The notes under the pieces are model-generated. The model was not told where the DNA came from and did not search any database. It saw only the letters and a program-made list of their open reading frames with translations. Shown in pieces: positions 13,865 to 44,469 of a DNA stretch of 64,000 nucleotides. Within the stretch, counting starts at the first letter, position 1; each line of letters begins with the position of its first letter. The position numbers and the translations under genes are program-made. This DNA is from Octopus vulgaris (taxonomy: Eukaryota), in the NCBI GenBank assembly GCA_951406725.2, contig OX597830.1:47492001-47556000 (forward strand), in the 5' to 3' direction.

Positions 13865-14095
13865 TGTACATTATTTACATTTGACGGATATTTGTCCTCA
13901 TCTTGTTTGTTAACACAATGTTTTGGCTGAAATACCATCCAGCCTTCATCAGGTGTCTTGGGGAAATTTCAAACCTGGGTTCTCATTCCTAAGGTATTTT
14001 TCAATGTTATTATTATTGTTATTATTCAAGTCACTGCCTGGAATCAAACTTGGAATCTTGGGGTTAGTAGCCTGCGCTCTTAACCACGGGCATAT
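13865..14095 (-). mobile_element. tRNA-headed SINE-like element with hammerhead-ribozyme tail (copy 1)
   Basis: Minus strand: GTGGTTAAGAGCGC...GTTTGATTCC tRNA-like head, (AAT)n, then GACAC-CTGATGA-A-GGCTG...CAGCC-AAAAC-ATT-GTGTT at 13957-13912. Confidence 0.75.
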
Positions 14096-14544
14096 GGCAT
14101 AGTGGTTAAGGACCAGTTTTCCATGGTTCAGATGGACTTTTGTTGAGGCAAATTTCTTTTTCTGGCTAGATGCCCTTCCTGCAACCAACCCTCACCTGTT
14201 CCCCCCCCCATGGCCCAGACAGGTTTTTCAAGGAAGACTGGAAACAAACAGCCTTGCTTCTAGGAAGGTAATGTTTGCAACCAACATGTGATGTCAAGGC
14301 AAGGGCGCGCGCATGCACACACACACCATACCTCCCTGATGGTATTCTTCCAGTTTCTGCCAATCAAATTTACTCCTGAGGCTTTTAGGCCATCTGAGTG
14401 GAAGACGGAGGGCCAAAGTGCTGTCCAGTGGGACTGAACCCTGACACCACATGATGGCTGGGAAGCAAGATCATTAACCACAGCTACACCATGAACTTCA
14501 ATATTATTTAGACCCCCCCCCCCCCGCCACTTTAAGACAACAAA

Positions 14545-14750
14545 CTGGCAGAATTGTTAGTCCACTGGGCAAAGTGGCTAGTGGCATTCTGTCAATCATT
14601 AGGTCCTGAATTCAAATTCTGCCAAAGATGACTTTGCTTTTTATCCTTTCAGAGTTGATAAAAATAAGAACCAATTAAATCGTGGGGTCAAAGTAATCGA
14701 CTGACCATTTCTCCTACAATTGCTGGCTCTGTGCCAAAATTTGAAATCAC
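14545..14750 (+). mobile_element. tRNA-derived SINE (family B); other copies at about 27946-28128(-), 28350-28555(-), 46173-46388(+), 55180-55375(-)
   Basis: Shared CTGGCAGAAT...GAGTTCAAATTC...GACTTTGCCTTTCATCCTTT...CCAAAATTTGAAA consensus across five copies. Confidence 0.75.
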
Positions 14751-14855
14751 TAAAAGTTCAGCAGTAAGCACATCCCATTAGGAATGCTTTTGAAAGAAAG
14801 AATATCTAACGCTATTCTTTAATTTGCTCCTTATTTGTAATGAAAATAAAAAGAA

Positions 14856-15107
14856 ATATGGTGTAGTGGTTAACAGTGTGGACGACTAACCCCAAGATTC
14901 TGAGTTCGATTCCAAGCAGTGACCTGAATAATAATAATAATAATAATAATAATGATAATGATAACATTGAAAAATACCTTAGGAATGAGAACCCAGGTTT
15001 GAAATTTCCCCAAGACACTTGAAGAAGGCTGGAGGGTATATCAGCCAAAATGCTGTGTTAACAAACAAGATGAGGACTAATATCCGTTAAATGTAAATAA
15101 TATAAAT
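14856..15107 (+). mobile_element. tRNA-headed SINE-like element with hammerhead-ribozyme tail (copy 2)
   Basis: A box TGGTGTAGTGG (14859), B box GTTCGATTCC (14904); GACAC-TTGAAGA-A-GGCTG...CAGCC-AAAATGCT-GTGTT at 15014-15059; homologous to 13865-14095. Confidence 0.75.
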
Positions 15108-15689
15108 GATGAATACCTGCCGATGATATCAAAAGTTTTTCCAGCCTTGCAATGGATTTAGAAGGAAAGCTTGCAGAACTCCCGATTAGCTGCTGCACTT
15201 CCTGCATGGGACAAAACATTTCCAAATTTGATTACATTTTGTCAGATAAGTTTTTGCTATGGCTGTATTCTAAGAAACCAACCCACTCCACTCAGTACAG
15301 GAAAATTGACAATTCTGTGAGTCAGTGACCTCAAGAATGACTCTCTTTACTGCTGCATGAACACATGTGTATAAAACCTCATTGACAATTCATTTTACTA
15401 CATTCAAGTTATTTACTGCTTTCATGCAACAACATGTTTTTTTATCATGTATAAAACCTGTTTACATTTGCTCGCTAAGTTGTCCAACACCCTGTCGGCT
15501 GGTGGTGCATTATTGAATCGTTTTCTAAGTGTATTTCCAATATCGTTACAAGTTCTCATTAAAACAGAAGGAAACTTCATACTTTATGAACATACAGCAT
15601 GTCATGCATATGTGTGTTAGCATATATATATCATCATCATCATCATCACCATCGTCATCATATCATATATATATATATATCATATCTGC

Positions 15690-16410
15690 ACCCTCGTTAC
15701 ACGAGAAAAGCCATAGCCAAAAAGATTTACTGAAATTATCTTTGGTGCGATGTGATATCCTTGTATGACTTTTAAGCTTTTAAGCCCAGCCACAATTTTA
15801 CACACACACACACAAATGCACACACACACACACAAGCACACATACGAAGCAATGGGTTGTATGCAATGTTTTGAGTGGCATGGGGACCTTAAAAATGGAA
15901 GAACGTCTCTGAAAGACAATAAGTGATCTAGAAGACCTGCCACAAGCATCATCCCTGGAAATGTGGTTTTGTGCATCGAGAATTCCACCCCCAGGGCCAG
16001 ACTGTCAATTAAGAGTTCTACTGCGATGTTTTGAAGCATTTGAGGCGGTGGGGGGGACATTCATTGAAAGCAACCAGATCTGTGGAACACAAAGAATTGG
16101 ATTTCTCACTGAGCTCTCCTCATTCAAGTATTGTTTCCACACCTACCCTATTCACCAAATTTCATCACCCTAGATGAAAATGCAGTTCAAAGGTCACAGT
16201 TTTAACCCTGTTGTTGAGATCCAGAGCGAATTGCAAAAGGGTGGAATTCACTTACAGAAAACGACTTCCAGGACAGATTCCAAAAGTGGCAGGAACACTG
16301 GAACCAGTCTATTGCTGCACAAGGTGAATATTCCGAAGGAAAGGATGTTCAAACTTTGGTAAATAAATTATTTTCCATTAAACATAACTACTCCAGTGAC
16401 CCTTTGATAA
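15690..16410 (+). mobile_element. Internally deleted, degenerate mariner relic
   Basis: AMGCMQCFEWHGDLKNGRTSLKDNK*SRRPATS (mariner HTH-like) near 15850-15950; PYSPNF and MKMQFKGHSF-like C-terminal remnants near 16140-16330. Confidence 0.6.
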
Positions 16411-41879: not shown

Positions 41880-42560
41880 CTAGCAGCATAGCCCGGCGTT
41901 GCCCGGGTATGTAAGAAACTTTGTCGATAAGCAATGCCCTTTACCTTTTCACCCTTTTTTGTACTCATTGAACCGTTATTTAAAAAAATATCGCAGAAAA
42001 ATCGGTTTACTATGTGTGCTACATATGATGTAATTAACCGATTTTTTTCCAGTAATAACGTATCCTATTGGAATCAAAAGGGCCATATAGCTCCTTGGAG
42101 CAGACATGAGGCTCGCTATGAATTTTAAAAAAAATTCATGCCAATTTGTTAAAGATATTGTCGAAAATATGTCATCTTGAATTTGAACGCGATTTCCCAA
42201 AATGGCCTGATTTTATCGATTTTTTCTGATGGTAAGGTATTGCATGGAAAACTAACGTCAGAATTAAGTTCCTTAGGGTAACATTAAGCTTCACCATGAG
42301 TTTGGTGAAAATCGATTGCAAGTTGCGAAAACTACAACGGAAAATGTGTTGCATATGATAAGTTTGGATTCTCGACCCCATGTCGAATTTATCGATTCTT
42401 TTCAGAACTGGAGGAACTTTTCAAATTTTTCGCTGCGTTAGTTTTGAATTATGACATTGGGATATGTGTGTGTCAAGTTTCATCAGAATCGGTTGAAAGC
42501 CGTGGTCAGGGTGAGGGTACAACCTGACAGACACACAGACAGACAAACTGCCTTATATAT
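41880..42560 (-). mobile_element. Non-autonomous Helitron between (TA)n tracts
   Basis: A|CTAGCAGCATAGCCCGGCGTTGCCCGGG hairpin terminus; other end ACAGACAAACTGCCTTATAT resembles the 30.8 and 35.4 kb copies. Confidence 0.7.
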
Positions 42561-43015
42561 ATATATATATATATATATATATATATATATATATATATAT
42601 ATATATACATATATATATATTTATAAACATATATGTATATATTTATATATGTATATATATATATAAATATATATGTATATGTATATGTATGTATGTGTAT
42701 ATGTATATATGTATATATATATATATATATATATATATATATATATATATATATATATATATATATATATATATATATATATATATATATATATATATAT
42801 ATATATATATATATATATATATATATATATATATATATATATATATATATATATATATATATGTTTGTTGAAATGGAAAGATGAATTATCTTGTTACGGA
42901 TTATTCAAAAGTTTAACCGATACCTGGGTAGCAAAAATCACAGCAGAAAAAACACGGTTGGAGTTATGACCATAGGGTGTTGCAACCGTGCGTTGGCGCG
43001 GATAATTGAAGTTTA

Positions 43016-43319
43016 ATATAATTAGTGAATGGAAGAAATGGAGCTGAACGAAGATTCTACAGAATTCCTTTTATTACATTCTACACATGTTTCAAAGGCC
43101 ACAAATTTCCAAATTCTGATTGAATAAGGATACCATATTGCAGCTTTCTCTTCAGGAAAATCGTAATTCCTGGATTTTCCTGAAGAGAAAGCTGCAATAT
43201 GGTATCCTTATTCAATCAGAATTTGGAAATTTGTGGCCTTTGAAACATGTGTAGAATGTAATAAAAGGAATTCTGTAGAATCTTCGTTCAGCTCCATTTC
43301 TTCCATTCACTAATTATAT
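43016..43319. repeat. Perfect 147-bp-arm palindrome with a hammerhead-like motif in each arm
   Basis: 43016-43162 is the exact reverse complement of 43173-43319 around a 10-nt loop; CTGAAGA (43180)...GAAACATGT (43242). Confidence 0.9.
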
Positions 43320-43571
43320 ATATATATATATATATATATATATATATATATATATATATATATATATATATAAAACATTACGTTATATAATTAGGGTTCA
43401 GAAAATAATTTACTTTACCACACACCGTGGGTGGACGAGGGAGGTTACAAAGTCTCATTCGTACTTTTTGAATTCGTTAGTACTAGCGGTCGAAGATGGT
43501 TTGTCTGGGATTACTCATATCAGACGGGTATGTTCGATTTTTAGTGCTCTCAAATCCAAACCTAAATAAAT

Positions 43572-43634
43572 CTTGAGCTGATGACGGAAATGTTGATCTC
43601 TATATCCAACTAATCCAGAAACGGCGTTCTCAAG
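43572..43634 (+). ncRNA. Minimal hammerhead ribozyme inside an inverted-repeat element (about 43371-43830)
   Basis: CTTGAG-CTGATGA-CGGA...TCCA-GAAA-CGGCG-TT-CTCAAG with a perfect 6-bp helix I; element ends 43371-43427 and 43772-43830 are inverted repeats. Confidence 0.75.
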
Positions 43635-44469
43635 TAATCGATGTACGTGTGATCTTTCGTTATTTTTCCCTCTATACCTGCGTGAATTATTTTTGAGTAT
43701 ACATTGTATGGGAGACTTTTCTTATAGTAGAGGAAATAGCTAAAATTTTTTGGCTGCTATTTCTAAAAGTTCGGTGTGTGGTAGAGTAAATTATTTTACT
43801 GAACTCTAATTATATATCGTAATGTTTTAAATATACCGTAAATGGTCTTTTTACATACTGAACACTACTTGGTAAAATTGATAATTAAAAATGAATTAAT
43901 TTTACCCTTTTATTATTGACAATATATATATATATATATATATATATATATATATATATATATATATATATATATATATATAGCAAATAAGAAAATGGAG
44001 AGGATACAAAAACGACATACATCAGCCGGTAGCCATTCTAGTGTGTCTATTTATTCCAAAGTAATAGAAAGTATCAGAAGATTACATACAGATGCAATAA
44101 CCATGTGTTACACACACACACACACACACACACACATGTACTAATATTACAGAAGAGAGCAAAAGATCAGATTGTCAGAAGGTACTAAGTTCCTTACGAC
44201 CGTTTCTGCTAAGAGGCAACGAAATCCTCCATGCCATCTCCTCGTCTCCTCAGTGTTCTGCAGTGATGGGCAGATAAAGCTTGGATGATGAATGTGCCTC
44301 TAGGCTTCTTCAGAGGGTCTTTGTGGTCGGGAGGTTTAATACATATAAGAACCAGTTAACAATAGGTACAGTGTGTGTCTTTTTGAAAAGGCAGAAAAAG
44401 AATAGGAGCAAACATGAGGATGGTAGTGAAGCAGAACCTATTAAAATTATTTATTTAAAAAAAATTATA

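Follow-up and report, generated by a model that had tools for sequence, protein, structure and literature searches.

The 64,000-nt stretch of the Octopus vulgaris genome analyzed here (assembly GCA_951406725.2, contig OX597830.1, positions 47,492,001 to 47,556,000 of the forward strand; henceforth the window) carries a series of short repeats with hammerhead ribozyme (HHR) motifs. A preliminary description had listed ten HHR cores and ascribed them to unrelated, non-autonomous, ribozyme-processed retroelements. All ten, together with a family G absent from that list (19361-19423, plus strand; ~18696-18760, minus strand), are members of genome-wide repeat families, eight in number (A, A2, and B-G). 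We consider it probable that these ribozymes belong to the terminal repeats of Penelope-like elements (PLEs), with A, D, E, and G (and likely A2) representing the ends of coding elements and C and F likely representing units copied by PLE enzymes, probably from circular RNA. The copies in the window are as follows, with signed positions counted from the predicted ribozyme cut.

13833-14112, minus strand: family B copy 1, with a tRNA-like head (~14030-14087), an (AAT)n spacer, a decayed minimal HHR (13912-13957), the long 3' end, and a short inverted head piece (14090-14112)
14856-15110, plus strand: family B copy 2, of the same anatomy, with the short 3' end and a decayed HHR (15014-15059)
18677-18877, minus strand: family G copy, HHR at ~18696-18760 with helix III damaged; the 3' side adjoins a long interspersed nuclear element (LINE) reverse transcriptase (RT) fragment
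19351-19520, plus strand: family G copy, putative 3' end of a Hydra-type PLE, HHR at 19361-19423 (predicted cut after 19417), ending in (TA)n
19549-19762, minus strand: family A inverted arm, short 3' end, intact HHR at 19581-19666 (predicted cut 19585)
19760-20294, plus strand: family A direct arm, putatively the last ~320 nt of a Hydra-type PLE 3' untranslated region (UTR), intact HHR at 20077-20162 (predicted cut after 20158), long 3' end, (TA)n
20319-20944, minus strand: family C main arm, with ~1.5 copies of the permuted, non-coding 428-nt unit (from +60 to the next unit's +265), intact HHR at 20578-20649 (predicted cut 20584), long 3' end
20943-20982, plus strand: family C inverted stub (+157 to +199), short 3' end, then (TA)n
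39696-40070, minus strand: family A2 copy, sister of A, HHR at 39871-39957 with C3>U
40071-40545, plus strand: family D copy, putative 3' end of a Hydra-type PLE, decayed HHR at 40199-40295
42862-43162, minus strand: family E inverted arm, HHR at 43079-43158, long 3' end (+217) that corresponds to the element's 5' UTR
43160-43320, plus strand: family E direct arm, HHR at 43177-43256 (predicted cut after 43253), short 3' end (+61), (TA)n
43373-43427, minus strand: family F inverted stub (+143 to +206), short 3' end
43426-43921, plus strand: family F main arm, covering 0.9 of the permuted, non-coding 563-nt unit, with its HHR at 43572-43634 (predicted cut after 43628), long 3' end (+297), (TA)n

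Repeat searches covered 2.8 Gb in 227 contigs; for each family, 40 candidates were scored and the best 30 loci kept, to which the per-family counts out of 30 below refer. First-look candidates, which are not copy numbers, came to 2319 for A, 2846 for A2, 3028 for B, 1235 for C, 696 for D, 1740 for E, 984 for F, and 3189 for G.

Hammerhead Folds

Type I HHRs were recognized by a CUGANGA and GAAA core with a UH cleavage site, closed by helices I-III. Hammerhead-type sequence is found at all ten coordinates given previously, and six copies, plus G, combine an intact core with closable helices; the other four are decayed. In both B copies AAAA replaces GAAA, with C3>U in addition at 15014-15059; A2 carries C3>U; and D has damage in helices I and III (family form ACGCGCGT). 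Across the genome, 21-29 of the 30 loci in each family keep an intact core, the exception being B (6/30, a set biased by its decayed query).

Helix III had previously been described as nearly always a short palindrome, and two of the readings required revision. The palindrome of family B is ACGT. ACATGT was rejected for the E arms (43016-43319) because a G would then fall at the cleavage position; the helix reads ACATGTGT, which is G.U self-complementary with A as H17 (a relative has ACATATGT). Family F has ACG-G-CGT, an imperfect palindrome, and a C.A mismatch at 10.1-11.1. Family G pairs TAATAA/TTATTA in helix I and has ACTC-G-GAGT as helix III. The label "minimal" applies to B only, as the remaining families possess a 3-4 bp helix III. 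Self-duplex energies of helix III range from -6.0 to -13.3 kcal/mol outside family B and amount to -1.7 kcal/mol in B; dimer folding is therefore plausible. Cleavage as a dimer through the self-complementary helix is plausible as well.

Compensatory helix changes, read by eye, separate related families, namely A from A2, E from its relatives, and F from its relatives F2, situated outside the window, and F3. Family A has TTGG/CCAA and ACAATTGT versus TGCAG/CTGCA and ACGATCGT in A2, while F has GGA/TCC versus AGA/TCT plus ACGTACGT in F2 and TCTACG/CGTAGA in F3. The covariation anticipated earlier is thus present between families; within families it is scant, save for G.U/A-U at 10.1 in C. As A and A2 are alike at 72-77% over ribozyme and tail, calling the elements unrelated was an overstatement.

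A strict descriptor (CTGANGA, helices I and II of at least 4 bp each, palindromic helix III) matched the window three times, at 19581-19666 (minus), 20077-20162 (plus), and 20578-20649 (minus), that is, in two family A copies and one family C copy; the mean over 60 block-wise dinucleotide shuffles was 0.017 (maximum 1). The relaxed version of the descriptor added both family E arms (43079-43158, minus; 43177-43256, plus), giving five matches against 0.12 per shuffle. The expected excess over shuffled sequence was thereby borne out, with the observed count, strict or relaxed, reached in none of the 60 shuffles. The Rfam check proposed alongside it was negative: the hammerhead models gave no match among those listed for the whole window (150 of 153) or for three sub-regions, and these scans yielded only low-complexity microRNA-type noise. 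That silence, the four copies without an intact core or helix, and minimum-energy folds that often miss the hammerhead shape would suit an origin of the motifs as chance matches in AT-rich repeats; this is hardly credible, however, and was set aside because no shuffle reaches the count and the helices change in compensation between families. In addition, the motifs share position and style with published PLE ribozymes. The proposed link to the hammerheads of Penelope pseudo-long terminal repeats is upheld. We take the type I folds in the window to be real. A weak hammerhead-like match with 2-bp helices at 2677-2760 (minus) is at chance level.

Ends of Coding Penelope-Like Elements

Judged by their longer genomic copies, families A, D, E, and G are represented in the window by the 3' ends of coding PLEs that were truncated on the 5' side. 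GIY-YIG endonuclease (EN) coding sequence lies upstream on the same strand, with staggered 5' truncation, in 4/30 loci for A, 7/30 for D, and 3/30 for E, and at loci L197 and L031 for G; RT and EN together precede the HHR repeat in A (L031), D (L332), and E (L318 and others), with EN only in G. At L031, an RT fragment, EN, a 700-nt UTR, and the A ribozyme follow one another, with an inverted copy of the end on the 5' side, and the A end is 93.9-94.6% identical to window positions 19760-20294. The E element at L318 is nearly complete, though its frame is broken, and has the order HHR-5' UTR-RT-EN-3' UTR-HHR; it matches window positions 42862-43134 at 99.6%, and its 5' UTR corresponds to 42862-43020. 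The notion that every element is an independent non-autonomous retrozyme draws on the lack of an ORF in any window copy and on C and F, which fit such a description, yet it is contradicted for A, D, E, and G by L031, L318, L332, and L197, where these repeats continue into GIY-YIG coding sequence, and we judge it very improbable. The earlier wording "non-autonomous, retrozyme-like" accordingly holds for C, F, and probably B, but not for these four families.

The coding pieces display motifs of the Hydra clade: the CxCX5C linker in A, D, and G, DKT in E, and CxxC and CxH in all four. An initial guess of Neptune was dropped on this comparison. Pfam GIY-YIG scores of the A and G pieces fall under the curated cut-off, and Pfam did not recognize the PLE RT pieces, which were identified by motifs and by linkage to EN.

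Insertion sites and 3' ends are equally regular. A (TA)4 tract occurs within 330 nt of the cut in 24/27 (A), 28/28 (E), 17/18 (G), and 6/7 (D) scored loci, at fixed distances in A, E, and G. The 3' ends of A fall at +35-49 in 10/27 loci and at +129-138 in 13/27, those of E at +60-61 in 12/28 and at +213-219 in 15/28; many E ends are 100% identical. The (TA)n boundaries described previously do not extend to B. Shared (TA)n targeting would explain the G-A-C and E-F clusters in the window.

Family A2, the sister of A, is likely a PLE end as well. More than 1.1 kb of non-repeating sequence, probably a long UTR, precedes its ribozyme, and no ORF was found upstream in 30 loci or in four extended ones. 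An EN at L385 was rejected as its partner; it lies ~3.5 kb past the shared sequence with other elements in between.

Non-Coding Permuted Units: Families C and F

Reading upstream from the ribozyme in C or F leads back into the downstream part of the same unit, with periods of 428 and 563 nt, respectively, and the longest stop-free frames span 53 and 74 amino acids. Two-HHR tandems of C occur at L093 and L265; F is permuted and extends to ~1.5 units. On this evidence, both families consist of ORF-less, tandem, circularly permuted, non-autonomous units, every one of which holds a single type I HHR. Their units show no similarity to the coding PLE ends compared.

Insertions of C and F bear the PLE footprint, in which a (TA)n target and an inverted arm are combined with two fixed 3' ends, one on each arm. 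The ends fall at +199 and +265 in C and at +206 and +297 in F. Once duplicates had been removed, leaving 46 insertions of C and 45 of F, the two-armed ones paired a short with a long end in 14/16 cases for C and 12/16 for F and never had two ends alike; (TA)n followed 55/62 C ends and 48/60 F ends. In A, C, E, and F alike, the pair of fixed 3' ends amounts to the tail signature traced to two internal RT starts in published work (PMC11167929).

The 5' ends behave differently. The cut site is crossed intact, with at least 16 nt upstream, in 27/30 C and 26/30 F loci (found with a query downstream of the ribozyme only; duplicates kept; two C ends limited by the reference), and 5' ends spread beyond -500. 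The cut was thus rejected as a marker of insertion 5' ends, which do not pile up there; the template is therefore not usually linear cleaved RNA, and the insertions lend no support to the term "ribozyme-processed". Non-majority letters are shared more often within an insertion (C, 0.36 direct and 0.47 inverted; F, 0.22 and 0.27) than between insertions (C, 0.17; F, 0.05), a weaker signal of the same kind as that of the F2 arrays described below.

In one (TA)n-bounded insertion, a chimera at L267:590-1760, C (-47 to +265) is fused with the EN region of an E-like Hydra PLE whose inverted arm ends ~50 nt past its own ribozyme. This arrangement suggests a template switch and points to an E-like PLE as helper. 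PLE protein matches near four other C/F loci were discarded, those at L272 and L147 as separate neighbors across (TA)n, and those at L140 and L300 as lying beyond the 3' end by coordinates. At L337:1097-2220 (reverse; the same place as L272), a family C insertion interrupts a further HHR family with a short helix II, helix I CCAC/GTGG, and four motifs, including a pair separated by 141 nt.

F2 is a young 563-nt HHR unit found in two-armed arrays of up to ~14 units (L336, L369-L383; e.g., G000:C3:97078250-97086131). Sixteen F2 loci span 1.5-7.9 kb and contain up to 13 full units with seamless junctions. Of the 15 two-armed loci, 13 have ends at 175-204 and 299-318, one has an end at 156, and one could not be resolved. 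In each of the 16 loci, 1-13 substitutions recur in every unit of both arms, and divergence rises from 0.49% within an arm to 0.70% between arms and 2.04% between loci. Private variants extending across both arms are what rolling-circle reverse transcription would predict. F3, a 596-nt tandem HHR unit (L109:440-1140, L204:274-970), has ACGTGCGT as helix III.

Templates and Mechanism

Extrapolating from in vitro data on an Anolis PLE, the PLE protein would nick both target strands, reverse transcription would begin within the RNA at two positions downstream of the ribozyme, and the resulting complementary DNAs (cDNAs), truncated at random, would be joined head to head (PMC11167929). Tandem copies of C, F, and their relatives would be transcribed and occasionally cut at the HHR, probably as a dimer via the self-complementary helix III or with the assistance of protein; the cut RNA would be ligated into circles, which the RT would then read round. 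On the specific proposal that Penelope enzymes carry out rolling-circle reverse transcription of small HHR circular RNAs from two fixed starts, one per end of the (TA)n break, with an E-like helper, our opinion is evenly balanced.

The chief competitor, which we regard as unlikely, holds that PLE enzymes moved C, F, and F2 from long, uncleaved, linear array transcripts, followed by unequal crossing-over; circles would be unnecessary, and the HHR would be a passive part of the terminal repeat. Such a route agrees with insertion 5' ends that disregard the cut site, with the period-3 variants of L369, and with the weak or mismatched 10.1-11.1 pair in several families. It also agrees with published experiments: HHR mutants had no effect on insertion in vitro and RNA-seq gave no ends at the cut (PMC11167929), and only one of nine Xenopus retrozyme dimers was cleaved in vitro (10.64898/2026.07.22.740005). 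Against it stand the existence of arrays of ~14 units and the private variants of the 16 F2 arrays: as every array is fixed for its own set throughout both arms, many separately homogenized sources would be needed. Moreover, core and helices are conserved across families with compensatory change, and the fold was therefore under selection, which also counts against a passive ribozyme.

Copying of C and F by PLE enzymes, probably from circles, accordingly remains the explanation we favor, and the following points weigh against it. Cleavage, ligation, and circularization of C and F RNA are predictions from DNA, and the absent pile-up of 5' ends fits circles and uncleaved precursors equally. The loci seen reach only ~2 units in C and ~1.5 in F. 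F2 lies outside the window and resembles F at 77% over only ~237 nt, and its 16 loci were picked for being multimeric. Variants have a three-unit period at L369 and are common to non-adjacent units at L336, and a single monomer circle is therefore insufficient; these patterns could stem from multimeric circles, subsequent crossing-over, or errors of assembly. The chimera is one of 46 distinct C insertions, and the search for autonomous elements with shared ends, successful for A, D, E, and G, revealed no coding partner of B, F, or A2. The Hydra assignment of these four is by motif rather than by tree, and E, the only family with an N-terminus available for DKT and RWK, lacks CxCX5C and has RWL in place of RWK. 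Finally, unprocessed RNA was the main substrate in the Anolis work (PMC11167929).

Family B

Family B, ~270 nt long, consists of a tRNA-like head, (AAT)n, a minimal HHR, and two alternative 3' ends, and forms head-to-head pairs. Direct repeats of 7-15 nt lie near the flanks in 16/30 loci (one insertion counted twice; the shortest perhaps due to chance), many copies start within ~13 nt of one position, and A and B box patterns (strict, from the consensus) appear in 11/30 loci. ARAGORN detected no tRNA in any of the 17 loci run (of 30), there was no Rfam tRNA match, and no coding sequence was found upstream in 30 loci. No (TA)4 occurs within 330 nt of the cut in 15/21 scored loci; as B is not (TA)-targeted, its helper is likely from another PLE clade. 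Family B is probably a tRNA-headed non-autonomous element resembling short interspersed nuclear elements, and likely an RNA polymerase III passenger that relies on another PLE without (TA) targeting. A GIY-YIG frame at L334:984-1925 (minus) with a CX4CXXC linker is a possible helper; this linker is Neptune-like, which would place a second PLE clade in the genome.

Relation to Known Elements

The elements are of known classes, for which a near-palindromic helix III has been reported. In the Hydra-clade table, which includes an octopus member (Hydra-1_Obim), stem III has 3-4 bp and is near-palindromic; one entry, actc-g-gagt, is identical to that of G, and U.U occurs at 10.1-11.1 as in A2 (PMC8557442). 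The EN-containing (EN+) PLEs of that clade share with our families a C-terminal GIY-YIG domain, CxCX5C (in A, D, and G), DKT (in E), CxxC, CxH, (TA)n targets, an inverted truncated arm, and a one-sided tail (PMC8557442). They differ in having <3 kb between ribozymes, versus ~3.6 kb in E, and tails of 30-40 nt, versus 66-156 nt here, where 3' UTRs measure 200 to >1100 nt (PMC8557442). Helix II domains are also much longer in octopus (50-85 nt in A, A2, C, D, and E), and several families coexist in one genome.

Metazoan retrozymes without long terminal repeats resemble C and F in being built of ORF-less tandem units that each hold a single type I HHR, in their low GC content, in forming dimers to multimers, and in occurring together with PLEs; mobilization of retrozymes by PLEs and tandem cDNA from circles have already been proposed (PMC7229834; 10.64898/2026.07.22.740005), and a PLE origin of metazoan retrozymes is in print (10.64898/2026.07.22.740005). 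The octopus units are set apart by lengths of 428-596 nt and Hydra-style ribozymes; circles and cleavage, shown for some metazoan families, are predicted here from DNA. Neither the footprint of two starts, inverted arm, and (TA)n nor a PLE chimera is described in the available text of the two reports (PMC7229834; 10.64898/2026.07.22.740005).

Hammerheads in PLE repeats have likewise been published; those minimal HHRs share with B an extra nucleotide before helix II, G10.1-C11.1, ACGT as helix III, and predicted dimer activity, whereas the tRNA-like head distinguishes B, and the longer helix III distinguishes the other families (PMC4209133). PAc, a Poseidon PLE of Anolis, shares the two internal RT starts downstream of the HHR that give rise to the tail, the AT-rich target, and insertions passing through an uncut ribozyme; it belongs to another clade, and its RT starts lie in the ORF rather than in the 5' UTR as in E (PMC11167929). 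As far as the accessible text of that study goes, non-autonomous or multimeric products were not examined (PMC11167929). "Hammerhead" and "ribozyme" are absent from the main text of the octopus repeat annotation (PMC13282606), and we found no description of a two-arm footprint in retrozyme arrays or of a tRNA-headed PLE passenger in a search that left subscription papers and bioRxiv supplements outside its range.

The value added by the present analysis is DNA-level footprint evidence for the copying of retrozyme RNA by PLEs, a mechanism proposed but unproven, which bears both on the role of PLE hammerheads and on which enzyme mobilizes animal retrozymes. Given very young families (E, and F2 arrays 99.5% identical inside), mapped RT starts, and a candidate helper, direct tests of circle formation, dimer cleavage, and rolling-circle copying are feasible; if the proposal is true, the retrozyme-PLE partnership becomes a defined, reconstitutable pair of enzyme and template. 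For annotation, some short ORF-less HHR repeats are truncated PLEs and others are true non-autonomous units, and the two should be kept apart.

Other Features of the Window

The HHR elements sit upstream of two exon-like stretches resembling G protein-coupled receptors of the rhodopsin family (Pfam 7tm_1), at 55393-55770 and 57947-58459 (plus). Other mobile-element remnants include a LINE RT fragment with a PHD-like finger (17736-18680, minus), a mariner-type transposase in two pieces (23084-24111, plus), and zf-RVT fragments of another LINE (50490-51918). Tandem arrays comprise three 210-nt units (32607-33236) and 57 21-nt units (53872-55063), and a 578-nt direct duplication (36213-37349) has a third copy at 27658; the HHR descriptors matched nothing in either array or in the duplication. 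Two imperfect palindromes, 44918-45169 and 39441-39529, are 74-76% self-complementary and are possibly miniature inverted-repeat transposable elements.

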